64,000 nucleotides of DNA from assembly GCF_037042905.1 (NCBI RefSeq), contig NC_087251.1, positions 26,786,001 to 26,850,000 of the forward strand, in the 5' to 3' direction. The position numbers and the translations under genes are program-made. Shown one piece after another: positions 13,207-62,160 of the stretch. Each line of letters begins with the position of its first letter. Position 1 is the first letter of the stretch. This DNA comes from Lytechinus pictus. Its lineage: Eukaryota. The notes below the pieces were generated by a model that saw nothing but the letters and a program-made list of their open reading frames with translations, made no database searches and was not told the origin of the DNA.

Positions 13207-15785
13207 GTGAAGTGTATGCTCACATCGTTATTTTGTATTCATTATGTATTATGACTACAATGTTTATAGTATGGATTATTTTGTATATTGCATATGTAAA
13301 AACATTTATGTATTGTATTATTTTGAACCGCAAGAATTAGAAGCAAAATAAAACAAACAAGCAATCAAAATATAAAATATTTCACAACTGAATTTCTCGA
13401 TTTCAAGAAACAGTTCACACTTTCACTGCCTGACGGAAATCAATATAGATTTCAACCACATAAATCGAACGGATGTAAAAATCAAACAAAAAGGTCGAGC
13501 GACTGCAGTGCAATAGCTAAAGTTATTATGCAGTATAAACTTTGCATGCAACTACAATAACTACCTCTAGTAAAATTCTAATCATGATGGATATTGCTAG
13601 TCTCAAGCTACTTACTCTATTTTCTTGGTCCTATTTCATCATTCCAAATAAACCTCGCACTCCAATCGATGAAAGTTTGGTATCCTTTTTTTGAAAGACG
13701 ACGCCCCCATAACAGACCATTACAGTGCAATTTGATACAGTATGGAGACAACACTCTGCGTGATGATAATCATGTAACACGTTCGACTCTTCTGCACTAA
13801 GAGCGTCACTCGCCAAGTTTAATGCACACACAAAGTATTACCCCCACCTCTTCCCCCACCTTGGGTGTCTCAATAAACGTTTCACTACTGGAATATTTTG
13901 GCACGGTATAGTTTGATCTTCAGTTTTTTCTGTTTGATTCGTCATAAAGGCGACACATTACCGGATATTTGTGCCACCTTCCCTGTGATAAATTGTTGTT
14001 TCCACTATGTCCACGATTTAAGTATTTTTGGATACATGGTCATTCAAGAAAAGGAATAAACGTCAACCTCATCACACAATGTGACAACGGCTTCACGCTC
14101 TTGCTTTGGTCTCTTAAATACCAACGTAACTATTTAACTAGCACCCCGATGACTTCAATCGCGGAGGGTCAACTAAAAAAGACACAAGGTTACATGTTTA
14201 TTACGTAATCTAAATATGAAACGCACGTTGTACAATGAATAGAAGCGTATTACTACATAATGGTTTATTTCGAGGGGGATAACAAAGACAAAAAGAGGAA
14301 TAAAAAGGGGAAAGGAAAGAGTATAAATTGGAGAGGTCTGAATCGTGTAAATTTATCATGTCGATATTCACAATGAAAATGACGTAATGTTTTGGTTTTC
14401 TTGCCCCACCCCCTCCCCCACCCCATCCCCATTCCACTTCTATCAAAATGCCCTTGTGCCACCCCTGTTTATACTGGGTAGACAAACGAGAGATACAGAA
14501 ACGAAAACAGGAGGGTGGATATCAAAGCCCCATCTTTATTGCGTCGGTTTTGTTTTTGTGCCGAGTCTGGACCATCCCATTGAAACGCAGGTGGCACGGA
14601 TCCAGATCAGGCAAGCACTCAAATATGACAATTCCTTACTCATCCCTTTATACCTGACTCAACAGGTCACAGCCGAACATTCCTTCTATCTTTCCGGAGG
14701 CCTCCTCGTAACCCGAGTGTACATGCCGAGTGGGAATCCAGCCATCAACACGCAATCTTGCACAGGGGCGGCCAAAACGGGGTATCGAGGGATGGCGCCC
14801 CTACCCGCTTCTCTTCTCGGAAATACTGGGCATACGTCATGCTTTGTTTACCAATATAAACAAATTTACATTTTTATAAACTTACGTGAGCTTAATAAAA
14901 AATAGGAAATTTTTACTATCTTATCAGTAAAATATCAGACGCCACCAGTTCCCTTTTAATATATTCCAGGTATGCCCTCAATTGTTGTGGTAAGAGCCAA
15001 CTATTCTTTCGTCCCCGAACGATCACTTGCTCTGTGCACAAACTTTCTTCATAAGCATGACTTTAAGTTGAATTAGAATTTAAAAGGATATGAGATCAGA
15101 TTTTCGGATTTTTTTTTTTTTTTTTTTTGGGGGGGGGATTTGTATTCAGATATCAACATCTTCTGAGATGTGGGGGATTTTGAGACAACATATGAGGAGT
15201 GTTCTTTCATTTATTCCTTTTTTACAGAATGTATGTTTTCGTGAAAACTCAATAAAACAAGAAAATCATCAGAAAATTCAGTAGAAAAAAGAAAAACAGG
15301 ACACAAACAGTAAAAAATATAAACTGGCTGTTTCACATCACATGATGCAGCTACAAATGAATTTGACCATTTCAACTTCTTGACTGTTCCCTTTAAATGA
15401 TGTAATGATAATTACGTAATGATGTTTCAATCTCAGCGAGGTGACAGCATCGTCATCCCACCCAATCCCGGACGATATAAACAGCTGGTCAAAGACTGCG
15501 TCGAGAAAGTTATTCCTCGCAAGAAAATAAGTCTTTTGTCACTCATCTAATTACTTCGTTTACATTAAAGTAATTTTCCCCTAATCATATACATTTCAAT
15601 GTAATAAGGGTATCACAAAATCATGTTATGAATATTTCATGAATATTCAGTTATAGATGTCTCAATATTGATATAATTCAAAACTTCCCTATTCTCGTTT
15701 TTAACTATCCATCTGAAATAATGACGTGCCATCAAGTCGAGGTTTTTCAAAATCACTATCACGAGAGGGGGATTGTATGTTCGAG

Positions 15786-15818
15786 CATGGACCTACTACT
15801 ATGAGAAATAGGTCCATG
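15786..15818. mobile_element. 33-bp P-element-like micro-element/excision footprint
   Basis: CATGGACCTA-CTACTATGAGAAA-TAGGTCCATG flanked by exact 7-bp TSD GTTCGAG (15779-15785, 15819-15825). Confidence 0.75.
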
Positions 15819-16119
15819 GTTCGAGTGATTAGCTTTATTACTCTGACTATGCGATAAAAAGGCAGATAGGAGCAGAGATATCAAGACAGAGAAATGAAGA
15901 TATTTTGTGAAAAGGCAACAACGAAAGGACCGGGATAGAATAAGAACGAGAAGTGGAAGAGAAGTTGTGGAATGAGGGGGTATATGAGTGTGTGTGTTTA
16001 AGTATGCTCACGTGGCAACAGAGAGATAGAGAGAGAGAGATACAGACAGACAGAGAGAGAGGAAGAGAGATGGAGAGAGGGGGAGATATAATGGGGTGTG
16101 ATGAAGTGATACCTTGGCA

Positions 16120-16845: not shown

Positions 16846-16993
16846 GGCTCCGTAACATAAAGATTAGCGCTAATTTGAAAGAACAATTCTGATTGGTTCC
16901 TAGTCAGTCTACGGAGCAAAATGCGCATGCAACGATAATCTTGATAGGCTATTTCAATTAGCGATTAATCGCTAACCTTTGTATTGCTGGGCT
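16846..16993. mobile_element. Degenerate short MITE (PIF/Harbinger-like)
   Basis: Imperfect TIR GGCTCCGTAACATAAAGATTAGCG / CGCTAACCTTTGTATTGCTGGGC, preceded by CAG. Confidence 0.5.
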
Positions 16994-27747: not shown

Positions 27748-28565
27748 CAGTGCGTCCCACAAAAAACGAAACCGAGATTTATCGATGATTTATCATAACT
27801 TAATCGCAAATACAATAGACAAATGACCTACCATTTTAAAGCTTAGAATCTCCTCTTTCATCTGAAATAACTTAGATTATTTCTCATTCACGCATGAGTG
27901 AGCAAAAACAATTTTAAAAGGGGATACCAAAAGTCACTTGGCGGGCCGTATCTGAGTTTTAAAAAGAAAACCACATTTTTTAAAAGTTCAATATCTGCTC
28001 TTTGATTTGATACCTCAATTACAGAAAATGGTCAAGAAATAACAAAGTTCTGGTTATTTGAAATAAGGCTTGAATTTCAATAATTTCATAAAATTAAGAG
28101 GTTTTACAGGCTAGCGTTCAAACTCACTCGACACTCCGTTTTGTTGACGATCAGCCATGCATTAAGTCTTTTGTTACCGTGCGATAGCTTCAGTGGGAAA
28201 CCGGTGAAAACACGTTTATTTAATGAAATTATGGAAATACAAGCATTGTTTCGAGGGATCATAACTTTTTTACTACTTGACCATTTTCTGTGATTTAGGT
28301 ATCAAAGAAAAGAGAAGATATTGAACTTTTTATTCATGTGATTTTCTTTTTGAAATTCAGATACCCCCCGCCAAATGAGTTTTTGGCATCCTTTCTTCGA
28401 ATTGTTTTTGCTCAATCATGCATGAATGAGGAATAATCTAAGTAATAACAGATGAAAGAGGAGATTCTAAGCTTTACATTGGTAGGTCATTTGTCTATTT
28501 TATTTATGATTAAGTTATGATAAATCATCGCTAAATCTCGGTTTCGTTTTTTCTGGGACGCACTG
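27748..28565. mobile_element. Tc1/mariner-like palindromic MITE (818 bp)
   Basis: TA|CAGTGCGTCCCACAAAAAACGAAACCGAGATTT ... AAATCTCGGTTTCGTTTTTTCTGGGACGCACTG|TA; inverted arms ~340 bp; TA TSD. Confidence 0.92.
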
Positions 28566-29049
28566 TATACATCTATCGCAGGAGCAATTACTCCAATTTA
28601 CTGCCTCTTTATTGCGGTAGTTAAAGGTAATTATAGTGTCACAGTGATCATTCTGCAGCTCTGCTTTAAAAGTTACGTAATATCGTCAAGAATTTACTAC
28701 GGTTTGTTTATGGCATGCTTCATCTCTTTTGATCGGGCCGAATTGTTTAGGGTGCACGTTCAGGTGTACAAGAGGTGATCTTCAAACGAGCCAAGTGTAG
28801 GTAAGAAATTAGCATAATTACACGTTCTTGCTGTAAAGTAACCACCAATCAACATCGAAAAAGGGAACCTCCCTCTCTTTCCTCCTCGTCACTGATGTTA
28901 TTACGCTGCGTAGTTATTTCCTATATGATAGAATCCCTCGAATAGGATGTAAAATGACGTATGATCCATGGAATTTTTTCTTCCAACCATTTAATATGTC
29001 AAATCCTAAGGTTTATGAATACACTTCTCGCATACCATCTCCTATCATG

Positions 29050-29763: not shown

Positions 29764-30743
29764 GTTATTATTTTGTTAAAGTAATGTTTTATTTCTCTCC
29801 AAAATCAAAAGACATATATTATAGTACAATCAACAAAACATTTTAATTTTTCATATAAAAAGAATACATCATTGATAATTGTTTAAACATAATGAACATG
29901 CACCATATTTAACTGAAGGTCTGAGAGAAGTTTGATATGTCTTCAAAACACCCCCTCTCCCTGTCATCTAAAGCACCAGCACAAACAAAACACTATCGGA
30001 CACACATACACACCGCACACCACCCCAACACCTGCATAACCCCCCCACCCCACCCCCACACACACATCCTCGGAAGTACACAGCCCCCTGTACTATCATC
30101 GATCCATGATATCTGTGCCTGTCTCGTCACCTCTATAGGTGAAAATTTCCCATTTTCTGAGATGGTTCACTGAAGTCCCCCTCTCTTCTGCTAGTTTTTT
30201 TCTCCTCAAGTTCATTTTCTATATTTTTTGTTTTATTTCTTGAGTTGAGGGGGGTTTATTTTAGCAAATTTTATATTATAGCAAATTTAATGAAACAGAG
30301 CCCTATATACATTTTAATCGCGTCGGTGAAACCGGCGGTACCAAGGTTTAATTCGATTTAAACTCCAATTGTCCTGAAGACATCGAACTCCAAAAATAAC
30401 CTAGTAATTGATCTGGAGTAGCTACCATTAGTTTGTCCGAACCCTCTGCCTATCCTCTTTCACCTTCCATAATCGTCAAGATTTTCTCTCCCAGGCATCT
30501 TCTCTACCTCACATCGCATGACTATAATGGTTATATATTCCCTATATAGGCCCTTCTTGCGACCCACATGGTGTGACGCCATTTTAAGAATACATGAAGT
30601 TTGCTTCAGACAACTTTCATGCTAGCTGTATACATCCATTACTATAGTTAGTAATTGCTGTTGTTTTGGTCAGTGACGATGGTTGCGTTATGAATCAAAT
30701 AATAATGTAGTGTCATCAAATGTGGACTTCATTTAGGAGGGTA

Positions 30744-31033
30744 TAGTGGCGTATCTAGTCACAAAAAAGCGCAATGTGCAAGCAGTTAAAATATTTTGCA
30801 CCTTTCTGAAACCTGACGCCACTGTTCTAAAGATGAAATCGCACCCCATCTAACTTTGATGCTGGCAGATTCTTTGGTTATTCGTCAAATTAAACTTTCA
30901 TTATTCTCCCTTTTTTCTCCCTGTCTTTGCACTTTCCATCTTTCTGACTTGTTTATTATCTCCTTCTCCTTTCACGCCCTCTGATGAAAGTGACGCCAAG
31001 AGTTCGTCCAAACCCCTTCTCTGATACGCCATC
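30744..31033. mobile_element. Old hAT-like MITE remnant
   Basis: TAGTGGCGTATC ... GATACGCCA inverted ends. Confidence 0.35.
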
Positions 31034-33403
31034 TTTGAAAAGAGACAAATAGCAAAAATAGTTGCACTAGATGATGTAGACCATAGGGACTCACTGTCAG
31101 ATTTACTTTACATGTTTGATATTAAAATGTTGCAGGCGAGAACCTAACAGCTTTTTTATATACACCATTAGCCTCACATGTACGTGTTATCATTTGCATC
31201 GCAAATAAATAAATGATACTTTTCCAGATATGTTATGAATCAAATCAAATGGAAAATTTGATATGAGGTCTAGATTTTTATGACGTACAGTACTTGAACA
31301 GAGTGCTTTATTCGTCAGTGTTTATTGTTTATTTTTCCTATATCATGTTATATGTGTGTTCCATTACATGAGAGAAGTCAAATAACAGTTTTGTTGCACA
31401 CATCCTCTGCTTCAAAAGTCTTAATAAATGTCCAGCAATTAATCGCGAGATTCAAGGATACCGATGCTAGTTCCGAAAGAAAAAAGACAGAAATAGAGTG
31501 GGGGTGCCCGTTTGTCCCCCAAGACGCCATGTCCCCAACCCTCCTTCGCATCGCCTCACCTCACCCCTTCCATAACGAAACAACTTGGTATGCCCCCTTT
31601 TACAGAAATTAAGAAATCACTGCAGGTCTCCATGTTGACATCGAAACATGCTGCCCTACACGTTTTCACAGCACCATCACTGCTTCAGGGCTCTCGACAA
31701 TGAACTTGTAGTTTCGGTAATTCGATATCGCATTCTAACAGCACAGTGGCAGCAAGTTGAAAGTACTTCCAACGATTGTCACTTCGAATATAAGTCATAA
31801 TTTTTGTGACAAAATAGAAAGTTCGGGTGCCCCCTAAATATCTAGATTTGTATGTGTGTGTCCCCGTTATCAATGCAGTACAATATATTAGTTTCAGAAT
31901 GGGGATTGTTCTAAAACGAAGTGAAATAGCTTCAGAAACCAGTTCAAATGTCTGACACAGAAGCAACATACAGTTGTGAGAGAAAACAAACATATTCTAT
32001 TGAAATGTCGGGATGAAAATATGGAAATATTCTCAGTTTGCTCACAATAGGTAGAAACAATTTTTATGAAGTAAAAATATATCCTATGCATGTTAAGATC
32101 GATTTTCATCTACTAAAAATGTTTTTGTTGTTAGCCAGGCCGCGCACAAAGGTGTGACGCAAAGGTATTTTGGAGGGGGACAAGGTGAATTTCACTTTTT
32201 ATTTCAATAAAAAAGATGGGAGTATTATATAATTTAACTGTAGTATTTTTTTTCAACTTCTCTCTCCGTTTGTAATCACTTGAAAAAAAAAACACAGGGG
32301 CAGTCACCCCTTGCCCCTGCGCCACCACCCTTGGCTGTACCCCTCCCCTCTTTATTACGACAAAACCACCAGCATTATGACCACGCCCATCTGTCATTTC
32401 CAAACATGCTCTCATTACTTTGAAATACTCATATCCCGAAAATCACTACCTGGGGATTTCAATTTAACTTTACACTTATCGAGTCCGGTTGAGTTTGTAT
32501 AACGCAGAATTAGTCTCGCTGTGGCATAATAACTACATTAAATTTATCGCACGGGTCTCTCATTTACCTCAATTGATTGAATCATTTCATTTAACCAAGC
32601 GAACTTGGATTCTCCGTGGCCAATGAATACGAGGTTGAAAGCGTTGGTAATAAAAAAAAATCAAAAAAAAGGAAAATCCACAAATATTGTGTTGATTTAA
32701 AAGTAAAGGGGAATTTCGCGAATCAGTGATAAGCGCAACATTAATGTTGTAAGCAAAGGAATTAGCAGCACGGTAACAGAGCCCACATTTTCTTTTGATT
32801 ACTGGCTTTTTATCTTCCTATAGACGTGTGTAATATCCTCTCCCTCGTATCAAATTCAAAACCAGATGATCGTGGACATCCATGATCCATAATCTTTTTT
32901 TTCTTAGCAAAATTCCGTAATAGTTGCATTCTACATTATAAAATAAATATGAAACAATCAAACAAATCTAAACAATCTATCCAGGGCCTATAATTATAAC
33001 AATTTCGTGAGAAAAATGAGGGATAAAAGTGTGTCATGGGGTAAATAATTTTCAGTCGTAATTTTACGACTGACCGATGAATTATATTTTTTCATGTATT
33101 TCCACTTTTCTTTCCTGTATTTTTTTCTTCAACTTGAAAACAATTATTTTTGTTCAAATTACGTCTTGAAGTCGGCTGAATAATAACGACAATGAAAATT
33201 GTTGTCAGACGCACCCGGCAGACGCATTATTCTACCGTTCGAAGAATAAATATAAACGTCAGACGATAATCACAATATTAAAATCTGCGTCCATTCCATA
33301 TAAAATAATACACAAAGTAATGCATGATGATTTGGGAGGAAAATTTGCAGTTTGGCATTACAGAGTTCGGCGCGATCAGAAATCCGATCTACGTTCCTTT
33401 TAA

Positions 33404-33423
33404 CATGGACCTATAGGTCCATG
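33404..33423. mobile_element. 20-bp P-element-like micro-element/excision footprint
   Basis: Perfect palindrome CATGGACCTATAGGTCCATG flanked by exact 7-bp TSD CTTTTAA (33397-33403, 33424-33430); same termini as 15786-15818. Confidence 0.78.
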
Positions 33424-36288
33424 CTTTTAATGACCGTCGTATGGATTCTATTATTCGATCACAAGTTGAGAATATAAATCCTCTCTCCATCATATTTTAT
33501 GTGAACGAAAATCTTGAGAACGGGCCAGCTCCGATAAATCATAAGTCACATTATACGATACGTTGAGTGATATTCGGGGTTATAGACCAGATATGATTTT
33601 AAAGGGGACTCCTACCAAAACTGAAAAGTATTTAAAGAAAGAAAGACAAATCAATGAAGCATATGAATTGTGGGTGAAAACAAAATTCGAAAACCAATAA
33701 GAATGTTATGAAATTTGTAATGTTGCTGTAAGTTGTAATAGCTAAACCTATTGGCATGATGGAGAATTGATATTGACAGCATATTAATTTCCTAATGATG
33801 TAGGCATTAACGGTAAAGATAACTTACTCTCCTATAAGGTATTTGATAAACAAAACGCAAAACGACTAAAATTCATGTGTTTAACGTTTTACTAAAAAAT
33901 CGTTATGTTTTTAATGATGACCTATATTTACATGCTCTGCTACAATTTGACTAGGATCCTGTATAAGGCATTATGCTCATGCAGGAGAAAATCATGAATT
34001 CTGATAATTAGGCGTATAATTTTCCTATATGAAAAAGTATAACGGTTAGCCCTATCTCACTTTTATTAATCAAGTTGCCAATTTAAGTTTTAGTCTTAAG
34101 TGATCTCATTTTCAAACATTAATTTTGTTTATTTCTTTTCAATCTTCTAAAGTTCTGGACTGTTTTAGGTATGGATTTAAATTATTAGCCCTGTTACATT
34201 CTCTTTATAATCAAGCAATACATATAGGGCCTACGCGCATTGTATTTCATAAAGATTTTTTTTTCAGAAACAGATATCTCTAACAGTTTTCATATTGAGG
34301 AATGGATCCCCTTCTCTCCAAATTCTATTTTACCTCAATATGCAAATCATGTATATAAAATCATAAATTAGAAATCAGCCACATGGTGTAATATTTTGTA
34401 AGGGAAATAATTATGTTTAAGGATAATGCGATGAAAGGATGTTTTACTTTGAAAATACAGCTTCGAATCTATTGAAGAAAAAGCTGCATATCAAACTCAA
34501 CTTCAAAGTTCAATGGCACTTTAAACCCGACTCTTTCTACAACGGGTCACAGCGCAGATAAGGGCTATACATCTTTAATCGGGTGGATCTTTGTGCCTAT
34601 ATTTATACTACAAGAAGGCCTGTTTTGATCCATTAAAATTACTTTCTTCTCTATAGGGCGCGGTCGAGATGACTTTTATTTGTCAGTAGACTGTGGTCAT
34701 CAATCTTAATGTCAAAATATGATAATAGACTCCTCTTTTAAAAAATGTATTCTTTACATGAATAAATTGATGACTACAGCAGGTTTATTTTGATAGGTAC
34801 CGTGCTCTGGTTTATTGTTGTTTAAACATTAATTTAAGAGAAAATTATGAAATGCAGGTAATATTCATATGATTTGATGGTGATATTAGAGTGAGAAGGG
34901 GGCAGACAGAGAGAGAGAGAGAGGGGGAGAGGCATGCAGAGAGGGGAGAGAGAGGGTGTGAAGGGGGGGGGGAGATGGAAGGAGTGAAGAGGGAGGGAGG
35001 GGTGGGAAGATTATTTGTGGAAATGTAGGGGAATATAGGGGAAATACACGAAATTGAAATAAAAAATATGTAGGTTTGACTTATCAATTTTCTTTCATAT
35101 TGAATATTAAAAAGAAAATGAAATTGGGCAAATGACTAGCAAAACATCCTTCTCTTCGGGAAGAAAGAAGTAACATGAAAACTGAGTGACCATGGAATAT
35201 TTGAAATTTATCTATTCCCAAAAGAATCGAGGCAAAGTTATAATCTGTTTTCATATAAATCATGTTGATACATTTTTGGGGCGCTGCGATTCGTAAACTG
35301 TTGATAAGAGTAACGAAACATCCTTGGGACGAAACATCAACAAATTTAAAAATTGTGGTGAGAGAACGGTCCAGGAATTTGAAAAAAAAAGCTTTTAAGT
35401 ATATCTTTATGATTTTAGGATCAAAGGTAAACAAACAGGATGGGTGAATGACGGGTAAGGATGTGGAAGCTAAGAGGGGGAGGGGGTAAAATAGGGTGAT
35501 GATGAAATATTGAAATTGAAATGCCTTGGTTGACGGCCATGCATTTATGACAGAACGGAAGAGAAAATGAAAGTGAAAACAAAAAGCGGGGGGACAGAAA
35601 AGAGGGGGTGGGTGATGAAAATACTCTCAGGAATCCCTGGGTGTATATAATAGAAAAGGGACTCAAGGATGAATCGTTTCCGAGTGCCCTAATCGGATCA
35701 GAAAATCAATGAACTCTCGATGCCTTACATAATATCCAATTCATAATCAAAAGAAATGAAAAAAGAAGGGTAAGAAGAAGGCGAAATAAGAGAGATGATT
35801 GAGAGTAGATACACGGATGACTGGAACTAAAAAGGCTGCGAAGGAGATAATGACCAGTTTAGATGCATATGCCTGAACAGGGCAGGCCAAACTCACAACA
35901 TAGTTTGCATACCACGGCGAGGCCATGCTAAGGTATCTGCCATACATGTAGATTCCATTGGAGAGCTAGGTCCCACACGTGTGTAATCTACATGGATGTG
36001 CCACGCCCACCTTTTACTCTTTACTGTGTGGTTCTGCGTTGTCTTATACACGGCGTTGTACTATGATTTGTTTATGTGAAGTTTGATCTTTATTATGTTT
36101 GAATATGAAGGGTATTGAATGACCCCCGTTAGTTGGCATAAAGAAAAGGTTAATCAATAATGATTAACATCAGTAATCTGATGTCGCATCTAATCTATTA
36201 GGCCTAACTTCACAAATTTAGGCCAAAAAACAAGCGAATTCAATGTTGCGATTATTATGAAATGATTATAGTTGTTGTTTTATATTAA

Positions 36289-37044
36289 AGCACATTTTCA
36301 CCCCAACAAAAAGTTGATTTAGATATAAAAAAGGAAAAACCAGCAAACATAACACTGAAAATTTCATCAAAATCGGATGTGAAATAAGAAAGTTATGACA
36401 TTTTTAAATTTCGCTTAATTTCACACAACAGTTAGCCTATATCATGTATATGCACATCTAGGGGAGTGTTTCATGAAATGAGTTGTCAAACGTTTTATCC
36501 GACAGTCACCATAGTAACAGTGACTCTCAGCCAATCAAAATCCAGAAAAGTTGTCAGATCTGACAACTTGTCGGACAAAAATGTTAATGAGACGCTCCCC
36601 TGGTCGGTAAATGAGGAGACTGATGACGTCACCCATTCACTATTTCTTTTGTATTCTATTATATGAAATATGATAATTCTGATTTTCTCCTCCTTATCAT
36701 GTAAAATCGAGTTTTATTCCTCCCTGAACATGTGGAATTAACATTGTTTAACATTTTGTGCTTCAGTCAAGTATTACATTATTGTCGATTCTGTAAAAAT
36801 TGAAATATTGTATTATTCAAACAACAAAAAAATATTTAAAAAAATATTAAGTAATGGACATTAGTTATCAATGGACATTTGCATATCATTGAGTTGTGCA
36901 TATATTTGTTTTGAGAAATAAAAATAAGTGAAACTTTAAAATGTCATAACTTTCCTATTTTACATCCAATTTTGGTGAAATTTTCAGTGTTATGCTTTTT
37001 CTCTATTGATTCAAATCACCATTTTTGGGGGGTTGCCTTGACCT
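36289..37044. mobile_element. Diverged Kolobok-like MITE with nested insertion
   Basis: Colinear, in opposite orientation, with 17310-17903; TTAA at left end, CTTGACCT at right. Confidence 0.8.
36461..36600. mobile_element. 140-bp MITE (Harbinger-like) nested in the Kolobok-like copy
   Basis: TIR GGGGAGTGTTTCAT / ATGAGACGCTCCCC interrupts host consensus GCACATCCTGGTCGG at a CWG site. Confidence 0.7.
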
Positions 37045-42348: not shown

Positions 42349-43074
42349 TATCGTTTTGAGGGGGTTTCATTTGTGTGTGGGCGGTCCTAACGAGAGTATT
42401 TGTGACTTAGTTCGTAGGCAACGGGCCCACTTTCCATTTAGGTATTTCGTAGAACAAGAATTTTAAACGTTCATCAAACTCCCTTTTATATTTTCATATT
42501 ATTTCTATATTATAAACACAACATTTTCTTAAAGGTACTTAATAAATTTTGACGCATTTAGCATGTAATCGATAACTCCATCCAAAGGCTAAAAAAAAGT
42601 TTTATGAGCCAGGGGTGTTGTTATGTCAGAAATTGTTCAGTTTTCAAAGTCTGCTGGACATGTTTGAAGCCCCCACACGGTTCACAAAGACAATTAAATT
42701 AACATCAAATCAGTGAGTAGACCTATTTATTTAACTAATTGTTTTTATCCTATCCCTCTATATATTCCTATTCGAACTATTGGTCTACAATTACTATACA
42801 TATTTCTTTCAGCAGTCTGTCACAAGTCATTGTCTAGCTTATTCAAATGGATAGCGCAATAGATGTAGTTACAATAGACAACTTTAATTATCACAACTCA
42901 TTTATCATTGCACTCACCATTCAATTATTTAAAACAGTTGAATTTTCACTTTAGCTATCATATAATCAGAAATATAAATTGAAGTGAACACCCAACAGAC
43001 CTCATATTGCTGACAAATGTGACAATACAAATATGATAAACAAGTATCGAATAGTGTGCACTATTATAATTTCA

Positions 43075-43116
43075 ATAATTCAAAACAACGTACTATAGTA
43101 CGTTGTTTTGAATTAT
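43075..43116. repeat. Perfect 42-bp palindrome
   Basis: ATAATTCAAAACAACGTACTA|TAGTACGTTGTTTTGAATTAT, no spacer. Confidence 0.95.
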
Positions 43117-44415
43117 ATTTCATAAGTATGGCACTAACTTACTTGTTCACTGTATGAAAAGTAATATGTTCTATGAATATGCATTCAAGTTATTCATTGA
43201 AAGCGACAGGTAATTTCATCGTATTGAGATTTTGGCTCAATACAAATTGGGTTGCATTAATTCCATAATAATATGAAAGAACAATGCCCGAACAATGCAC
43301 ATAATATTGAATGAAAAGGTATGCAATGTATTGTTGGGTAAAGTTATTTTTTATCGCATGTTTGATCTGCAGTGTTGTAAGATACAATACACAATTGCAA
43401 TCTAAATTACAAAATGGTGCAGCCATGAGGTTTGTTTTTCTATGAAATTGAAATATGTAAGTTTATAATCCTACCCTGGGGATAACAACAAAGATGTTAT
43501 TAGAACGTGTATTGTGATTTCTCTTCCGTGTAACTCCGTTTCCTCCGTGCTCGTCTATTTCTCTTTCGCTTTTCCCCCTCCCTCTCTATCCCATTGCCCC
43601 CTCTATCTCTTCCCGACCCCCCCCCGACCCTCGTCGCTCCTCTTTCATATTAAGTCAATCTCACGCAATCGTTCCTTCTTTCCCCCGTAATCTGATTTTT
43701 CTTTACTCTGTGAATTTTATCTATTATCTAGAAATCATTATTTTCAGTGCGAGGTACTCATTAAATATTTTATAAAATGACCCCTAAATTTCTAATGTGG
43801 TGTATTATGTTACGATTTTTTTTTATGCGTAGATAATATGTTTGTAATTATTCAATGCCTCATGGTTGGCGATTGGTTTTTTGGTGAATGGGCTACCCTG
43901 AGAACAGCTTAGAAATAAATAAATGAATAAAAATATTTCCTGGTACCATTCTCAGCTTTATTGTTGTTTAAAAATCGTTTGACAATTCAAGCGAGCCACT
44001 GACCTTTTACGACTAAGGAAAGACTCTTTTCTGATATCGTCGTTTATTCTCACTTGGATGACCAGTAATACACAACCAAAATGTCCTGTTGTGCGCCCAT
44101 ATAAATATCTGCAACCTATGGAATCTTTAAATTGTCATCGACTTGTAGAGATGGCGAGATAAGTCATATCACTAAGGCGACATACTGAGGTTATTATTTC
44201 AACGTGACGAGATCAGAGATACGTATATATCTCGCCAAGTCGACATACAGATAGTTGTATGTCAACTTGACAAGATTGTCTCAATTACGTATTTGTTTGT
44301 TGAAATTTACATATTTACTTTTTATAGGGGGAGGGGCGACAATATAACAAACGAAGGGGAAAAACGATGAAAATGTGTGTATGTGCGAGGGAGAGGAAGT
44401 GCGCGTATGTGTACT

Positions 44416-48802: not shown

Positions 48803-49838
48803 TTTTTTTTGTTTTGAATATTATTTTATTTTCTTCCTCTTTCAAATCAATAAGTTTACAATCACAATTCATATAAATAAAGATTCTTTGTATGTATACA
48901 ATTAATAAACAATCAAACAAATAAACATATCAATATCAATGAGATTACGAATATTTTTAAAATGATTACAAATGAAATTAAACTGCCAAATTTCTCTTTT
49001 ATAACAATGTGAAAGCAGAGGGGAAAAACCCATATCAATCGACAAAATAAAAAAAACTTACTTTGTAAAAAATGACTTTTTCCCTGAATAGAATAGAAAT
49101 AATCTCTTTCGCACATATTAATTGTACAAGAAATAAAAAAAGTATAAAAGATTATTTTAAAGGTTAATTAGAGGAAGGTTATCCTAAAACGTCCCTACAC
49201 ACTCACCATACCCCTCCCCCCTCATCTCTCTCCCCAGACACTCACACAAGCTCACTTCAACTCACCACCACTCACAGCTCCCCCCCCCTTCTTCCCCGTC
49301 ACAAAACTCACACATCCATCTACACACGTACACCCACACACAATGCATCCTGCTCTCTCTGGTACAACTATCTGTATTTGAACAAATAAACAAAACAGAA
49401 ACAAAATGAAGCAACCAATTCATCCATAGTATTAAGAAAGGTATGCATTGATTTGTTCCCATTTCCTCCCGGCATTTCCTTAAGTGCACCCCCAGCTTCC
49501 CCTTTTTAAGCGCTATTTGATATTCCGTATCTCTATACTCTTTAACCAAATGTGTCACTTTCTGTACGGTTGGCAATATTCCCTGTTTTCTTGAACTAAA
49601 AATAATATACTTAATTAAGAATATAATACAGTTTATTAAAGCTACTCTTGTAGTATTTCCAGATATCCCCATGAAAACTGTTTTCCAAACGTCACTGCCA
49701 AGTTCATTCAGTTGAAATATTTTACTCATCTCTTCCCATAATCGCTTAACTTCAGGACAATAAAAAAATAAATGTTGGTAAGACTCAACTTCTTTTTTAC
49801 AAAAGGAACACACTTCCCTTTTAAAGTTACAATATAAA
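48803..49838 (-). mobile_element. 5'-truncated L1/Tx1-type LINE (ORF2 C-terminal zinc knuckle + 3' UTR)
   Basis: ORF 49262-49921 contains CSFCKKEVESYQHLFFYCPEVKRLW (CxxC..HLF..C, typical of the L1/Tx1 ORF2 C-terminus); AATAAA and A-tail near 48803; possible ATACAA TSD; the ORF's N-terminal part is host MITE read-through. Confidence 0.85.
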
Positions 49839-50086
49839 TACAAAATTTCATAGATTTGACAATAAGGTCCCTCTTTGTTGGACCACAATATGTTCAAACA
49901 ATGGTAATTCCACAGGTACATGGAAAAAATTAAACCTCGTTTCTCTTGACAATAAGGAGAAAATGGAAATATTTCAAATAATAAAATACTAAAGAATTAG
50001 CGAGTGGGTGATGTCACCAGTCCCCTCATTTGCATACCGACCAGGATGTGCATATAACTGTTTTGTGAAATTAAGTGAAACTTTAA

Positions 50087-52744: not shown

Positions 52745-54112
52745 CAGACCTGCCAACCTCTGGGAATGAAAAACTGTATTCTGTGATAAAAAAAACTGTA
52801 TTTTCCCCCCCAAAAGTGTATTTTATAATAAAATGCTTGGCCTCTCGCTCATCGCAGCGCTCAAGCTGCATGCAAGCTAAAATGCGCACTGCTCTTGCAG
52901 ATGAAAAGAAAAACATTGAAACTTGTGTAAATCTCACCCTGGTTTTTACAAAATGATTGAAAAAAAAAAACAAGTTGCCTGAAATTACATTGATCTAATT
53001 ACCATATTTGTGTACGTTTTATGAAATAGAGACATATAGAGATGATTTTTCTCAATAAATTACGATTTACAAAAACGTATTTTGAAAAGAAACAAGTGGA
53101 ATGCCTCTGGCCGTCTCACCTGCATCACGCGATTCAATATAGCAGCAGTGCTGATTTTGAATACTACTATAACTCGCACAAGATGTTCAGTGATACTTGG
53201 TTACTCTTATTTCCACGTTTTATGAACTAGACCAATACACTTATAGAGATATGATGGCAATTCAACAAATACCCCCAACGTGGCCAAAGTTCTTTGACCT
53301 TACATGACCTTTGACCTTGATCATGTGACCTGAAACTCGCACAGGATGTTCAGTGATACTTGATTACTATTATGTCCAAGTTTTATGAACTAGACCAACA
53401 CACTTTCAAATTTATGGCTGTAATTCAACAAATACCCCAATTTGGCCAAAGTTCATTGACCCTAAATGACCTTTGACCTTGATCATGTGACCTGAAACTT
53501 GCACAGGATGTTCAGTAATACTTGATTACTATTATGTCCAAGTTTCATGAATCAGATCCATAAACTTTCAAAGTTATGATGGTAATTCAACAGATACCCC
53601 CAATTCGGCCAAAGTTCATTGACCCTAAATGACCTTTGACCTTGGTCATGTGATGTGAAACTCATGCAGGATGTTCAGTGATACTTGATTAACCGTATGT
53701 ATAAGTTTCATGAACTAGGTCCATATATTTTCTAAGTTATGATGACATTTCAAAAACTTAACCTTAGGTTAAGATTTTGATGTTGATTCCCCCAACATGG
53801 TCTAAGTTCATTGACCCTAAATGACCTTTGACCTTGGTCATGTGACATGAAACTCAGGCAGGATGTTCAGTAATACTTGATTAACCTTATGGCCAAGTTT
53901 CATGAACTAGGTCCATATACTTTCTAAGTTATGCTGTCATTTCAAAAACTTAACCTCAGGTTAAGATTTGGTGTTGACGCCGCCGCCGCCGCCGTCGGAA
54001 AAGCGGCGCCTATAGTCTCACTCTGCTATGCAGGTGAGACAAAAACGTACTGCCGTATTTTGGTTGCAAAAACGTATTAAATACGGCTAAAACGTACTGG
54101 TTGGCAGGTCTG
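52745..54112. mobile_element. hAT-like MITE with 6-bp TSD, containing a nested HINE
   Basis: TIR CAGACCTGCCAACC / GGTTGGCAGGTCTG; TSD CCACTA (52739-52744, 54113-54118); copy without the HINE at 63290. Confidence 0.88.
53091..54045 (-). mobile_element. Non-autonomous Helentron-type element (HINE) with ~160-bp tandem array
   Basis: Sub-terminal IRs GTCTCACCTGCA / TGCAGGTGAGAC, extra short IR and small stem-loop, (GCC)n, T-run termini; inserted in an A/T run with no TSD (compare empty site ~63700-63715). Confidence 0.82.
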
Positions 54113-54454
54113 CCACTAGACCAGGAAACCTATTAAATCTGCGAGATTCAAAACAAATTGTGCACTTATTGTAATATCACTCTTCCATGCTAATCACAGT
54201 GGACTGAACAGCATGCATTAATCTTTCAACTCCGTATATGCAAGAGTGGGATATTAACTATACATTAGAACTTTCTAATTAGTTCTTCTTTCGGCCCTTG
54301 TGCTTTGGAATTGGATTCATCATATAAACTTTTTTTCAAATTTTCACTCATGGGCTATGCTCTTTGTAGGTCTCAGGAAAAGGTGGACAGCCCACATGCC
54401 TATCATTATATTGAACAGTGGTTGCACCTGGATCATGATATGAACAACACATTT

Positions 54455-54598
54455 GTATGTCAGTGAAGCACGGGGTCTGGATAAAGAGTATAGAAAGACT
54501 CTCCCAAACACGAAAACCTCACATGCTTAATGTACCCCCAATTCCAAATGAAACAACTACTGGTGATAGAACCAGTTGAATCATTGAATGTTGGGGGA
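54455..54598 (-). ncRNA. Candidate intronic box H/ACA snoRNA
   Basis: Sense to EEF1G, ~144 nt: hairpin 1 CCCCCAA..TTGGGGG with inner AATGA/TCATT and ACTGGT/ACCAGT; H box ACATTA (54528-54533); hairpin 2 GTGAGG..CTTCAC with AGAGT/ACTCT; ACA at 54458-54460. Confidence 0.6.
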
Positions 54599-55190
54599 TT
54601 AAGGATGTAAATTCCAATCATTGAAAGCAATGAAGCCAGTACATGGTTGATAAATTCACAAATGGATGTGATTACATGTGTGTCTAACCTTGTAATTAAT
54701 AGGTTCCTGTACAACATATAAAGCATATGAGAATAACAGTTATCATGAGATTGAATAACTATTTCACAAAAAATCAAAAACCTAAAATGAAGCGAACATT
54801 TCCTGCTTCCAACTAAAACAGCCGACATGACGATACTTCTTCGCAGTGGCGTACCGTGGGTCGCGGCATTGGGGGGGGGGGGGGGCACCAGCAAAAATTT
54901 TGAGTCACTTAGTGAGCGCGCAAAGCCCACTCAGTTGCCAGGTATACTGACCTAATGGAGACATATTTAAGGACAGAGCCATTAAACGGATATGTAGGTC
55001 TCTGGTCAAATAATGCGAGCGCGAAGCTGAAAATTTTTGATATTCAGACCTAAAAAGGGACATTATAGGCAAATTTTTGTAATCATGATACGTACCTGTC
55101 TCGCTAAACAAAAAATACGAAGCGCGAGTTGAAATTTTTTAATAGACCCCAAACGGACATTTTAAGGACTATATTTTAGGAATCCATTAA

Positions 55191-55934
55191 CCCTATCTTA
55201 ACTGGGCTATTTCGGACCAGTATATACTTGGGGAGGGGGGTCAATTTGACCCCCCCCCCCTCAGATCTTGGCCGCTGATTGCGCGATCGCCGCGAAAATT
55301 TGCACACGCGTAGAGCCGGATGTAAACTACAAGACAGTATAGAAAAATTTTCAACATATTAATTGTTTTTATTTTTTATTAATTAATTATGCAAATAAGC
55401 GTATGAAATTTGCCCTAAATTTGTTTTTTTTCGGTATGTTTTTGCCTTTAACTCAATTTATATAGCTAGAAGAATGCTAATTTTTGGTGGGAGTATCAAT
55501 TATTACATTTCTAACAAATATCTACAAAAAAATTGCAAAAATATGATTAATTTCTTATGTTTTTTATTGTTTTTTCCGATGAACTTTGTCAGGGACCCTT
55601 TTGCGATCATAAATAGCATAAAATAAATCCATGAAAACCAACAAAAGTGAAAATAATCATACATTTATGATTTCAGGTTAAAAAACACAAATTGCATTGA
55701 CTTTGTACATGGAATCACGTTTTTGAGCAATTTCGGGTCTGACATGCACTTACAAAATGTTGCGTTTTTTCGGAACCACGTACCCGGGGCGTCGCAAATT
55801 TTGTCTCAAAGGATGCGCAAAATTTGACAGTAAAAAGTCAGTGAGCGGTGCGGTAAAAAATTTGGCGCGACAGCGTAGTGACAAAATTTTTCGAGGGGGG
55901 GTCAAATTGACCCCCCCCCCCCGTTTAATAAGGG
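55191..55934. mobile_element. piggyBac-like MITE (744 bp)
   Basis: TTAA|CCCT ... AGGG|TTAA; subterminal GGGGGGTCAA(T/A)TTGACCCCCC palindromes at both ends. Confidence 0.85.
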
Positions 55935-56331
55935 TTAAGAGTATACATCTCTTACCATACTCATCTAATGCGAGTGCCAAGCGCTTGCTGATTTTGTTAG
56001 AATTACTTTTAAACACATGAAGCACTTGTGGTCACTGTAATCATGATTAGCATACGCATCTCACTAATCAAATATTGCGAGCGCGAGCTAAAAATTTAGG
56101 AAATTAAGACCTGAAGAGCATTCTAAGGCTTGTTTGTAGGAATTCACTATAAGACCACACGTATTTCACTAACAAAATGATGCGAGCGCGAAGCGCAAGC
56201 TGAAAATTTCTGATATTCAGATCAGAAAAAGAGACATTTTTAAGGACTGATTTTAGGAATTCATGAAGAGCAGACATCTCACGAACCCCCTAATGCGAAC
56301 GTAAGCACGGACAGTAAATATTTTTTATTAA

Positions 56332-58303
56332 AGGAGAAATATATTGATTATGAATATGGCCTTATTATATATCAGTGGAAAGATCATGATGTGGGGATTA
56401 TCATTTGGCCATTCAAAAATAACGAAAGTAATACATAAGGTGGAAATCGCCAATTAAAAAGCGCTAAAATGCCTCTCCGAAATACGCCTCCCATCGGTCT
56501 CTGAATTGACTCGAATTTGATGACGTGTATGAGTGTATGAGAGACGTGATTGGCTTTCCCATGGCAAGCACCACTTGCATGCAAAACCTGTTGCAAGGGT
56601 ACGTTTTTCTCCACACTGTCACTGAATACCACGATCACGAAATGAAGGAAAACCCAGAAGTTTATCTAGATTTTGGATTTTTAAATTGATCATTTTGAAG
56701 ATGAAGAGAATGATGATGAAGTTTCTAGCTCTAGTGACGTGGATGGGGGTAAATTAGGGGAATTACGTCTATGATGAGTCGGACAATTCAAACTTGCATG
56801 CCGATTCGCTACCAACTCATGCAGCTGCTAGTGCTAGCTGCACGTAGCGTAGGCCTACCGCGGGCCAAAATAAATCCATGAAATTCCAGCCTGACCATCC
56901 ATACAGAGTCTCTTCTCTCTGTCAAGGCTCTAAAGAAAGAAAATAATGATATAACTGTACTTACAAACAAGTGAATATATCCTAAGGAAGGCAAATCAAC
57001 TCAACGAATAGCAGCAGACAATATTCACCGACGATAAACTTCACGTGGTTGGGATAAATGTCACTCGTTCTGTTAGATATAATTTCTACCTCACTATTTT
57101 GACAAAAATTACGAAACTCGGGGAATTATTCATCTATATAAAAATATAGTAACACCTCGTACTATTTTTGAATTACGATAAAATCTTTTTTGAAGCAAAA
57201 AGTTGAGGTAAATTAGAATTAGATGTAAAAGATCATCCCCAACATGCGTAGCTCGTATGTGATTGTAAACAAACCTTCACAAACACACATTGCTTGCTCG
57301 CCTTGGCTGAGAGAGTAGGTGCACGTGTTGCACAGCTCTCAATCGGCATTTTGGATGGTTTGTTTACAATCACATACGAGCTACGCATGTTGGGGATGAT
57401 CTTTTACATCTAATTTTAATTTACCTGAACTTTTTGCTTCAAAAAAAGGTTTTATCGTAATTTTAAAATCGTACGAGGTGTTCCTATATTTTTATATAGA
57501 TAAATAATTCCCCGAGTTTCGTAATTTTGTCAAAATAATGAGGTAGAAATTACATCTAACAGAACGAGTGACAATTTATCCCAACCACGTGAAGTTTATC
57601 ATCGGTGAATATCGTCTGCTGCTATCCGTTGAGTTGATTTGCCTTCAGATTCATATATATTCACTTGTTTGTAAGTACAATTTTATCATTATTTTCCACC
57701 TTTAGAGCCTTGACAGAGGGAAGAGACTCTGTATGGATGGTCAGGCTGGAATTTTCATGGATTTATTTTGGCCCGTGGTAGGCCTACGTGCGTGCAGCTA
57801 GCACTAGCAGCTGCATGAGTTATGGTAGCAAATCGGCATGCAAGTTGAATTGTCAGACTCATCATCATACACGTAATTCCCCTAATTTACCTCCATCCAC
57901 GTCACTAGAACTAGAAATTTCATCATCATTCTCTTCATCTTCAAAATCATCAATTTGAAAATCCAAAATCTAGATAAACTTCTGGGTTTTCTTTCATATA
58001 CTGATCGAAGTATTCAGTGACAGTGTGGAGAAAACGTAACCTCGCAACAGATTTTGCATGCAAGTGGAGCTTGACGTGGGAGAGCCAATCACGTATCTCG
58101 TACACTTATACACGTCATAAATAAAAAACAATTTCACGTAATTGAGCGTGTTTGAAGCATTTAGAGAGAGAACTTTGAAATATCAATTAAGTGATTTTCA
58201 TCGGTCTCCATGATAAATGATGTACACCATCGTGTTCTTCTTATTTTCCCCTTTAATTTGATATATAATTCTTCATTTTTATGATTTTCAATATATTTCT
58301 ACT
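56332..58303. mobile_element. Kolobok-like element with internal ~760-bp-arm inverted repeat
   Basis: TTAA|AGGAGAAATATATTGA ... TCAATATATTTCTACT|TTAA; arms ~56519-57275 and ~57357-58120 are near reverse complements around an ~80-bp spacer. Confidence 0.85.
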
Positions 58304-59131
58304 TTAAGACCTTAAAATGGGGCAATCACTTTAAGTAGTCATAAAAAAGAAGCAAATGTCACTACATAAAACAATAATAACTGGAAGTGCGAGGAAATAT
58401 ATTTGGTGTGTACTTGAAAATGGGAGGTTTTAGTACAGCAGGATTATATATCTTGTTAAACAGACAATGCGAGCACCAGGAACAATGAAGATAGGCCCTG
58501 AGCAAATTATGTTTCATAAAGTTATGAAAAAAATGTTTCTTATGTAATATAATTATAATACAACATTATTATGAACAATAAATTCTTCTTTTTTCTCTTC
58601 CTTTCTCCTCTTTCTCCTTTTCCCCGTTTTTTTTTGCCAAGCGATGGGGGGGGGGGGGGGGCACGTAGTTATGCCACTGCTTCTTCGTGATAAGTCAACT
58701 AATGAAAAAACTGTTTCTTATGTAATATAATTATAATACAACATTATTATTAACAATAAATTCATCTTTCCCGCTACGTTTCTCTCCCTTTCTCCTTTTC
58801 CCCGTTTTTTTTTTGCCAACCGATGGGGGGGGGGGGGGGGGGCACGTGCCCCCCCCCCCATGCCCCCCGTAGTTACGCCACTGCTTCTTCATGATAAGTC
58901 AACTAATGAATAAATCAAACCCATGCGGAACTTTATGAATATTTGTCCTCATAAAATTTGTCCAGGTCAAGGCTACTTCTGTAAACCCTAGTGAATTAAC
59001 ATAAGCAGACTTTGATCAAAACAAGAAAATTTACTTCAAAGACTGTGGGCACTCAATACCACAAATTAATTTAACAGAAAGAACTAATGGAAAATTAAAA
59101 AGAGTTGCCAATTTGACAGAGCATTACTTAC

Positions 59132-59256
59132 ATCAAAGATTAGAGATTGTCCCTTCCAGAAAAAGACACCTTGTACTTGGGTGCTTTTGTCCTCTCCAAA
59201 GATAAGCATGACACCAAACGCATGCTTCATCATCTTATCAACACGTTGGTAAAATC
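59132..59256 (-). CDS. EEF1G: Elongation factor 1-gamma (eEF1B-gamma), penultimate coding exon (125 bp)
   Basis: Acceptor TTTTTTTTTCTCCAG, donor GTAAGT; translates (G)FYQRVDKMMKHAFGVMLIFGEDKSTQVQGVFFWKGQSLIFD, matching the eEF1G C-terminal domain pattern (G..QR.DK..K.AF....FG.......GV....GQ.L.F); splices in frame to 52461. Confidence 0.95.
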
Positions 59257-59284
59257 CTGGAGAAAAAAAAACAGGATTATGGCA

Positions 59285-59440
59285 TGATCATCACCAACAC
59301 AGTATCACCCAACCACCACCACCACCACCCCACCACTACCACAACAACCACCACCACCACCACCATCATTGTCATCACCATCACCACCACCACAACAATC
59401 ATCATAATCAACACTATCATCATCACCACTGACTAACATC
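59285..59440. repeat. (CAC/CAT)n degenerate microsatellite
   Basis: CAC, CAA and CAT triplets. Confidence 0.85.
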
Positions 59441-59937
59441 ATCTAAGGCATATAAAGCAAGACCACTTGCCACTAAGGGAACAAAAATTTCCAAGCCAAT
59501 GAAAAGGGCAATGAGGCCAAAAGATAAGGTATCCAAGGCCATGAGTTACACCTTGACCTTGGAGTCATTAAGTTCACGTGTGGTCATTTATACTTTTGAG
59601 GATTGAAATCAATAGATGTATTGCTGTTTATGATCAAAATTGACTTGCCAACACATTACATGGAAACAAATACTAAAACAATAAAAGAAGAAATACATTT
59701 GTTTTATGAACTTTCATGAACAAGCTTTCATATTAAATTTCTTTTTCAGTACAATCCTAAAGAGAGCATCAGGAAACAAAAACAATTGGGTGCCTGTTTA
59801 CGTAAATCTGAATCATGATTTTTCCATAGATTAGAAAGAAAGATGCTGACAATAGTCAGTGAAGGATTGAAGAGGTTCTATAAAAAGTTTAACTCCCACT
59901 CTTTCAAGATTCCTTCTCAATTATAACCATTATTCAT

Positions 59938-61444
59938 AACAAATGGAGCGCCTCCGGCAGTCTCACCTGCATCATGCGATTCAATATGCCAGCAGTGCTG
60001 ATTTTGAAAACTACTATAAAATAATTATTCACAAAAAACACTATTCATATGATACAATACTACGTTCATTGACATTTGACCTTGATCATGTGACCTAAAA
60101 CTCAATGACCTTTGACTTTGGTCATGTGACCTGAAACTCGCATTAAAAGTTCAGTGATACTTGATGACTCTTATGTCCAAGTTTTATCAACTAGACCAAT
60201 ATACTTACAGAGTTATGATGGTAATTCAACAAATACCCCCAACATGGTCAAAGTCCATTGACCTTTGACCTTGGTCATGTGACCTGAAATTCGCACAGGA
60301 TGTTCAGTGATACTTGATTACTCTTATATCCAAGTTTCATGAATCAGATCCATAAACTTTCAAAGTTATGATGGTAATTCAACAAATGCCCCCAATTTAG
60401 CCAAAGTTCATTGACCCTAAATGACCTTTGACCTTGGTCATGTGACCTGAAACTCAGGCAGGATGTTCAGTAATACTTGATCAACCTTATGGCCAAGTTT
60501 GACGAACTAGGTCCACATACTTTCTAAGTTATGCTGTCATTTCAACAAGTGGAATGCCTCTGGCCGTCTCACCTGCATCACGCGATTCAATATAGCAGCA
60601 GTGCTGATTTTGAAAACTACTATAACTCGCACAAGATGTTCAGTGATACTTGGTTACTCTTATTTCCACGTTTTATGAACTAGACCAGTACACTTATAGA
60701 GATATGATGGCAATTCAACAAATACCCCCAACGTGGCCAAAGTTCATTGACCCTAAATGACCTTTGACCTTGATCATGTGACCTGAAACTTGCACAGGAT
60801 GTTCAGTAATACTTGATTACTATTATTTCCAAGTTTCATGAATCAGATCCATAAACTTTCAAAGTTATGATGGTAATTCAACAGATACCCCAATTCGGCC
60901 AAAGTTCATTGACCCTAAATGACCTTTGACCTTGGTCATGTGATGTGAAACTCATGCAGGATGTTCAGTGATACTTGATTAACCTTATGTATAAGTTTCA
61001 TGAACTAGGTCCATATATTTTCTAAGTTATGATGACATTTCAAAAACTTAACCTTAGGTTAAGATTTTGATGTTGATTCCCCCAACATGGTCTAAGTTCA
61101 TTGACCCTAAATGACCTTTGACCTTGGTCATGTGACATGAAACTCAGGCAGGATGTTCAGTAATACTTGATTAACCTTATGGCCAAGTTTCATGAACTAG
61201 GTCCATATACTTTTTAAGTTATGCTGTCATTTCAAAAACTTAACCTCAGGTTAAGATTTGGTGTTGACGCCGCCGCCGCTGCCGCCGTCGGAAAAGCGGC
61301 GCCTATAGTCTCACTCTGCTATGCAGGTGAGACAAAAACTTAACCGGTTAAGATTTGGTGTTGACGCTGCCCCCGCCACCTCCGTCGCCGCCGTCAAAAA
61401 AGCGGCGCCTATAGTCTCACTCTGCTATGCAGGTGAGACAAAAA
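59938..61444 (-). mobile_element. HINE copy, host of a nested HINE
   Basis: Same termini (AACAAATGGAGCGCCTC..GTCTCACCTGC; GCAGGTGAGACAAAAA) and 160-bp units; resumes at 61339 after the nested copy. Confidence 0.82.
60544..61338 (-). mobile_element. HINE nested in HINE
   Basis: Near-identical to 53091-54045 but one ~160-bp unit shorter; inserted into host TTTCAAAAACTTAACC A-run. Confidence 0.85.
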
Positions 61445-61560
61445 TCATTGCTGAAGAAAAAGACAAAATCACTAATCAAGAAAACACAGACAATCCTAAA
61501 AACTTCATTCATGGGGGTACTTTTTTAGGAATTGCCTCTATATCTGACCAAGATATATTA

Positions 61561-62160
61561 AACAAGTGGAGCGCCTCTGGCAGTCTCACCTGCATCACGC
61601 GATTCAATATAGGAGCAGTGCTGACTTTGAAAACTACTATAACATAATCATTCACAAAAAATACACAATTCATATAACGATACAATACTATGTTGACCTT
61701 GATCATGTGACCTAAGACTAGTCAGTGATACTTGATTACCCCTGTATCCATATTTTATAAACTATATCTATTAACTTTGAAAGTTATAATGGTAATTCAA
61801 CAAATACCCCCTACATGGCCAAAGTTCATTGACCTTTGACCTTGGTCATGTGACCTGAAACTCGCACAAGATGTTCAGTGATAATTGATTACTCTTATGT
61901 CTAAGTTCAGATCCATAAACTTTGAAAGTTATGATGGTAATTCAACAAATACTCCCAACATGGCAAAAGTTCATCAACCTTAAATGAACTTGGTCATGTG
62001 ACCTAAAACTCGCACAGGATGGTCAGTGATACTTGATTACTCTAATGTCCAAGTTATATGAATCAGATCCATAAACTTTTAAGATTTGTAGTTGATGCCG
62101 CCGCCGACGTCGGAAAAGCGGCGCCTATAGTCTCACTCTGCTATGTAGGTGAGACAAAAA
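61561..62160 (-). mobile_element. HINE copy (shorter, more diverged)
   Basis: AACAAGTGGAGCGCCTCTGGCAGTCTCACCTGC ... GTAGGTGAGACAAAAA. Confidence 0.82.

Follow-up and report, generated by a model that had tools for sequence, protein, structure and literature searches.

The segment at positions 33397–33430 of the window (the whole 64,000-nucleotide stretch of Lytechinus pictus DNA that was analysed) is probably the scar left by excision of a cut-and-paste DNA transposon that worked like the P element. Positions 33404–33423 form a perfect 20-bp palindrome, CATGGACCTATAGGTCCATG, with CTTTTAA on each side as an exact 7-bp direct repeat. A sister site, the start of which lies 17,618 bp from that of the first, has a 33-bp core (15786–15818) with 10-bp ends identical to those of the palindrome, and is flanked by a different exact 7-bp repeat, GTTCGAG (Table 1). 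Its arms are separated by a centre of 13 bp, and those of the 20-bp palindrome abut without a spacer. Exact matches to the 10-mer arm within the 64-kb window were the four arms of these two sites only. Reading both sites confirmed the initial annotation, which had described a perfect 20-bp palindrome with an exact 7-bp target-site duplication (TSD) as the second member of a pair. Added here are an apparent empty site, a family in another organism with the same ends but another TSD length, and a 22-nt limit on the arms of that family.

Table 1. Components of the two sites in the window and the basis for each
Feature	Position	Strand	Basis
Left TSD, CTTTTAA	33397–33403		Direct reading and structure scan
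Putative left terminal stub of departed element, CATGGACCTA	33404–33413	+	Exact arm; same end in 98 listed loci of another organism
Putative right terminal stub, inverted copy	33414–33423	−	Spacer-free; would be joined by microhomology over the central 2–4 nt
Right TSD, CTTTTAA	33424–33430		The 27 nt of core and a single TSD are apparently missing from organism A
Sister site, left TSD, GTTCGAG	15779–15785		Direct reading and structure scan
Sister site, putative left stub, CATGGACCTA	15786–15795	+	Exact arm match
Sister site, 13-bp non-palindromic centre	15796–15808		Presumably retained inner end sequence and/or CTA-repeat insertion
Sister site, putative right stub, inverted	15809–15818	−	Exact arm match
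Sister site, right TSD, GTTCGAG	15819–15825		Direct reading and structure scan

The window consists of AT-rich eukaryotic sequence in which microsatellites and MITE-like repeats occur, along with one LINE fragment, a C-terminal part of ORF2 at 49262–49921 on the minus strand with a weak zf-RVT match. Near-matches to the arm at 9215 and 25349 were discarded because each stood alone, and those at 53716–61207 were discarded as parts of a 163/192-bp tandem repeat. This dispersed repeat family occupies 53091–54045 and 59938–62160, and its 163- and 192-bp tandem units contain a 9/10 match to the arm. Three other perfect palindromes were observed. One of 42 bp with a CTATAG centre (43075–43116) lies between exact 6-bp repeats of ATTTCA (whole 43069–43122); its ends differ from CATGGACCTA, its length equals that of the modal scar in the metagenome family described below, and it is possibly the scar of another family. 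The other two, of 22 bp (36548–36569) and 18 bp (16958–16975), have no flanking repeats.

The window was scanned for exact arms of at least 10 bases, an exact direct repeat of at least 7 bases and a core of at most 70 bp, with low-complexity sequence excluded. Two structures, 33397–33430 and the sister site, were recovered from the window and none from 200 block-wise Markov simulated windows, and the anatomy is therefore not attributable to chance.

Public runs that had words in common with 30400–34850 numbered eight, and four of them (X8, X2, X5, and X7) were compared. X8, from organism B, was almost identical to the window letter for letter and had no contig over 33397–33430. X2, X5, and X7, from organism A, were about 93% alike to the window. 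Organism A contigs covered the site in X2 (record 6, 289 letters over 326) and X5 (record 11, 435 over 466), each 37 letters short, and X7 had no orthologous contig at the site. As deduced from gap totals and bin depths rather than read directly from the indel rows, 10 of the 37 missing letters fell in 33231–33379 in both runs (9–11 for X2), with at most two in 33207–33230. The remaining 25–28 missing letters of X2, with a best estimate of 27, fell in the 153 bp that hold the site (33380–33532), and the remaining 26–27 of X5 fell in 33380–33664. The core plus one TSD is 20 + 7 = 27 letters, the same as the best gap estimate. Judged from these alignments, 33397–33430 is apparently an insertion, and two organism A samples from two studies fit the empty site. 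The proposal that the two sites arose by independent insertions was upheld in that their TSDs differ and the orthologous contigs of organism A are about 27 letters shorter around 33397–33430.

Contigs from other loci aligned only over 33390/33398–33429/33430 and then diverged from the window; there were at least two in X8, at least four in X5, and at least four in X7, and X2 had none with the 20-mer among the matches listed. The 20-mer therefore occurs at other loci in both species and in three of the four runs compared. A flank match this good is expected at about 1.25% of random loci carrying a 7-bp TSD and at 0.064% of those without one. To within an order of magnitude, these values imply some hundreds of 20-mers per genome if they carry TSDs and thousands if they do not. 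The expectation of many copies genome-wide is thus supported roughly.

The site lies within two stop-poor reading frames that overlap each other (33321–33700) and resemble coding sequence in decay. In one of them, the 27-bp insert preserves the frame of a 79-codon stretch and adds one stop, which lies within the palindrome. This stretch was set aside as a gene because it had no Pfam match, only one weak partial match (E 6e-4), and no extra conservation in the comparison with organism A (93.3–93.4%, versus 93.8% for nearby DNA). The single site 33397–33430 shows no sign of function, and the scar is inert and too short for repeat annotation.

The two-arm pattern was found at at least 120 loci in metagenome contigs. 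One series of contig identifiers (Ga0126325–35 and Ga0136654) was set apart, and its 98 listed loci were reduced to 69 sites, although L008 and L073 possibly represent a single site. This same-ended family belongs to a LINE-bearing eukaryote. The family arm, CATGGACCTATAAATAGAACGC, agrees with the window element in its first 11 bases and differs from the sister site beyond base 11. An exact 8-bp TSD was present in 50 of the 67 listed sites with flanks, one with at most one mismatch in 57 of 67, and an exact 7-bp TSD in one. The target began with GT and ended with AC in about 55% of the listed sites. The 20-bp cores of the family are identical to 33404–33423, and their 8-bp repeats are exact in L097 and have one or two mismatches in L008/L028 and L073. 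Because the same 20-mer sits between 8-bp duplications elsewhere, TSD length is family-specific; the 7-bp TSD of the initial annotation holds for both window sites and does not extend to this second family. Comparison of the locus flanks with the window showed no similarity. Two members had unusual structures: L096 (301–354) has a third nested arm within one 8-bp TSD and a 54-bp core, and the palindrome of L087 (301–342) runs at least 40 bp on into both flanks, as a foldback or an assembly artefact.

Two-arm matches outside this family (n = 29; 22 from metagenomes and 7 from prokaryote genomes) carried an exact 7- or 8-bp repeat in none of the 28 cases with readable flanks. Two loci from other metagenomes, L071 (601–621) and L044 (601–633), have the same 10-bp ends with 7-bp flanking repeats containing one and two mismatches, respectively, and possibly represent the 7-bp type in further organisms.

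Core lengths at the 69 listed sites ranged from 20 to 50 bp and took 19 values, with 42 bp at 27 sites, 40 bp at 10, 24 bp at five, and 20 bp at three. Where the core was below 42 bp (40 sites), agreement of the arms with the 42-mer never extended beyond nt 22; random deletions of the same sizes gave an average of 14.8 such cases, and none of 20,000 trials was as low. Arms stopping exactly at nt 22 numbered 10 among these short sites against 2.8 under the null (P 5e-5), the value 22 having been picked after inspection of the same data. For classification of the joins, each site was treated as two 22-nt tails, and 67 sites were classed with the 43- and 50-bp sites omitted. Microhomology accounted for 46 of them (2 nt in 34, 4 nt in eight, and 1 nt in four), blunt joins for 13, and insertions or substitutions for eight. 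The 4-nt microhomologies (8/67) compare with 3% for random blunt joins. In this join model, the tips pair over GC in the 42-mer, CG in the 40-mer, ATAG in the 24-mer, and TATA in the 20-mer. From their sequence, all cores of the family can be interpreted as a pair of 22-nt stubs fused through microhomology, after trimming, or with short insertions.

For the window, the 20-mer requires merely an overlap of 2 nt (AT) or 4 nt (TATA), and the 33 bp of the sister site could be 17 + 16, 10 + 23, or 10 + 17 with a CTA-repeat insertion. A fixed-length MITE has a uniform length and interior; the cores in the window are 20 and 33 bp long, and the centres of the same-ended family vary. The earlier preference for end joining after excision over such a MITE was borne out in that family, in which the 40 short sites show 24 different centres, the joins include microhomology and insertion types, and the arms have a limit of 22 nt; for the Lytechinus window, where two sites were read, it applies by inference.

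One locus, L049 (974–1242), has a lone 22-nt arm joined directly to a LINE 3′ tail. The sequence beyond this arm had 50 homologues, four of them with reverse-transcriptase domains. It was ruled out as a parent-element end continuing past nt 22 because the adjoining sequence is a LINE 3′ end, and L049 may be read as a scar into the centre of which a retrotransposon inserted or was captured.

We propose the following course of events. An element with CATGGACCTA(T) ends would have inserted and duplicated 7 bp of its target; the duplication is observed, and recent insertion is indirectly supported. Its transposase would later have excised it with a long stagger, so that the outer part of each terminal repeat stayed on the chromosome as a single-stranded tail. 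End joining would then have trimmed and fused the tails. At 33404–33423 the tails would have met over a short self-complementary central patch to give the 20-bp palindrome, and at 15786–15818 more sequence would have been kept or added at the joint to give 33 bp. We infer staggered excision and end joining because the same-ended family and the fly data show matching anatomy. The strong statistics belong to a different organism, in which the TSD is 8 bp and the arms depart from the sister site after base 11; the window genome contributes only two readable sites.

In flies, P transposase makes a 17-nt staggered cut (PMC7776569), so that each chromosomal end retains a 3′ tail with 17 nt of the terminal repeat. 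Repairs of the P{wa} donor (Chan, Yu and McVey 2010; PMC2895639) retain the 8-bp TSD and CATG-ended stubs of up to 17 nt with microhomology, blunt or insertion joins, and palindromic near-tip joins are among the commonest (14 and 5 isolates), in the portions consulted. Within the literature examined, in part as excerpts, a long staggered cut has been measured biochemically for the fly P transposase only. The window sites resemble Drosophila P donor junctions in having a TSD on both sides, CATG-starting stubs of both terminal repeats, a variable centre, and palindromic joins as a common outcome. They differ in that the window TSD is 7 bp and the fly TSD 8 bp, and the fly tails are 17 nt compared with the 22-nt limit in the same-ended family; unlike the products of the P{wa} laboratory assay, they would be natural germ-line scars at many sites. 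Six of the first 11 bases of the window ends agree with fly P, and CATG is common to both.

Among related elements, TSDs are 8 bp for P and 7 bp for Galileo and 1360, as far as the consulted sections state (PMC2775673, PMC3698922). The window sites share with Galileo and 1360/Hoppel the 7-bp TSD and, on the reading proposed here, cut-and-paste transposition with an assumed donor-site break (PMC2775673, PMC3698922). Unlike Galileo, they have no long terminal inverted repeats (TIRs), and the Galileo target consensus GTAGTAC given there fits CTTTTAA poorly and GTTCGAG partly. A term search of these two papers (PMC2775673, PMC3698922) returned no mention of footprints. Zebrafish Pdre2/THAP9 elements are likewise non-insect and P-like; their TIRs are short, their TSDs are 8 bp, and P-type transposases can excise them. 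They differ in having 13-bp TIRs and subterminal repeats on long elements, and no cut depth is stated for them, in the passages seen (PMC7776569, PMC10983969). P-mobilised MITEs such as BuT5 are also non-coding and TSD-flanked, and they depend on a P-type transposase, as the window unit may; BuT5 is described in the available part of its report as about 1 kb and of fixed length, in contrast to the window unit of 20–33 bp with a variable centre (PMC3698922).

Elements of the P superfamily have TSDs of 7–8 (to 9) bp and TIRs starting with CA(TG); both of the two window sites have exact 7-bp TSDs, and their ends start in this way when compared with fly P ends. The Repbase rule for non-autonomous elements, as worded in the section consulted, asks for the same TSD length and at most one mismatch over terminal bases 1–11 to a classified member (PMC4455052). 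Against fly P, the only member compared, 6/11 bases agree and the TSDs are 7 and 8 bp, which bars filing as a member and is compatible with membership. An autonomous parent in the P superfamily would encode a GTP-binding DDE transposase with a THAP domain, and the internal transposase-binding sites and subterminal repeats of such an element would have been lost on excision. Because no parent or transposase was found and the ends fall short of this rule for terminal bases and TSD length, we describe the putative scar as working like a P-element footprint without assigning it to the P superfamily.

No parent was found among long inverted-repeat pairs in the 64-kb window or in viral contigs, which gave three lone matches without a partner end. 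In prokaryote genomes, the 22-nt arm had no match and the two-arm pattern had seven, all lacking an exact TSD. The locus flanks likewise revealed neither a parent nor a transposase. Other mobile-element structures were observed in the window. A 978-bp element at 56829–57806, which we take to be hAT-like, has TAG-starting inverted ends and the 8-bp TSD GCAGCTGC, and is nested in a 1,296-bp inverted-repeat element flanked by ATCTAGAT (whole 56664–57975). A MITE-like element at 27750–28570, presumably Tc1/mariner-like, has inverted ends starting with CAGTGCGTCCCA and TA flanks.

An unlikely alternative is a mobile miniature hairpin. In this view a transposase inserted the palindrome as such, at a length of 42 bp in the other organism and 20–33 bp in the window, or the palindrome was captured in the form of a hairpin oligomer; its centre would have eroded later by opening near the tip and rejoining. 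The single dominant length of the family, 42 bp at 27/69 listed sites, favours this alternative, as does the failure to find a parent in the window, viral contigs, prokaryote genomes or locus flanks; tip opening one base off centre might likewise give the 22-nt limit. TSD mismatches were also more frequent at short cores (8/35) than at 42-mers (0/21; Fisher P 0.02, or 0.04 with L008 and L073 merged), which suits later decay of 42-mers. One locus, for which three contigs show a 40-bp core and a single contig a 42-bp core, speaks for the hairpin and fits either repeated excision or later decay. On the other side, the 42-mers carried only 3 substitutions at 594 free positions (about 0.5%), so the family is young, yet shortened centres were found at 40/69 listed sites; erosion to this extent needs a very strong hotspot. 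Insertions at the joints resemble break repair, the fly assay produces the same anatomy directly, and it is implausible that a transposase complex would pair both ends of a 20-bp duplex. The bolder variant, in which the 20–42-bp hairpins are themselves mobile, is improbable and less likely than a P-like transposase lineage; it would make them a new smallest class of mobile DNA.

Equally doubtful is an origin in which a longer MITE or foldback element collapsed with no cut of the P type, through replication slippage, inverted-repeat hairpin deletion, or non-P excision (hAT with a 7-bp TSD, MuDR or Merlin) with a stagger inside the ends. Repbase includes hAT families with 7-bp TSDs, as far as the consulted portion shows (PMC4455052). 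Neither the TSD length nor the GT..AC target bias is specific to P, and no link to a transposase was found. Against such a collapse, the sharp limit at one position and the tip-to-tip joins need a fixed break. Excision by hAT elements proceeds through flank hairpins, and its footprints consist of inverted flank (target) sequence with no transposon ends or terminal-repeat sequence kept; at the present sites, the core stays the same from one site to the next and bears no relation to the TSD, and both TSD copies are intact. It is very improbable that the structure arose by chance or local duplication, or that it is a protein-binding palindrome that happens to be flanked by a repeat: the window holds two sites only, but 0/200 simulations yielded such structures, the TSDs of the two sites differ, the site is apparently absent in the related organism A, and unrelated two-arm matches carry no TSDs.

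Excision by a P-like mechanism remains the preferred reading. Among the matches listed, the 11-base motif appeared in the literature only in papers unrelated by title. No paper on natural genome-wide P-type scars or invertebrate cut depth was found in the searchable literature, which is without most subscription papers, Repbase Reports and supplements; footprint papers for other superfamilies exist, judging from a literature listing.

We tentatively suggest, as a possibility somewhat short of even, that a P-like transposase lineage with conserved CATGGACCTAT ends is active in at least two animal lineages, with TSDs of 7 and 8 bp, a cut about 22 nt inside its ends instead of 17, and hundreds of scars. 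If this is true, both the cut depth of the transposase and the germ-line pathways of end joining could be read from the sequence of the scars alone. If they are natural scars of P-like transposases, past excisions missed by repeat annotation would become countable, germ-line end joining in wild invertebrates would be sampled, and the cut depth of one family would be about 22 nt. Scar sites would also be homoplasy-poor presence/absence markers.
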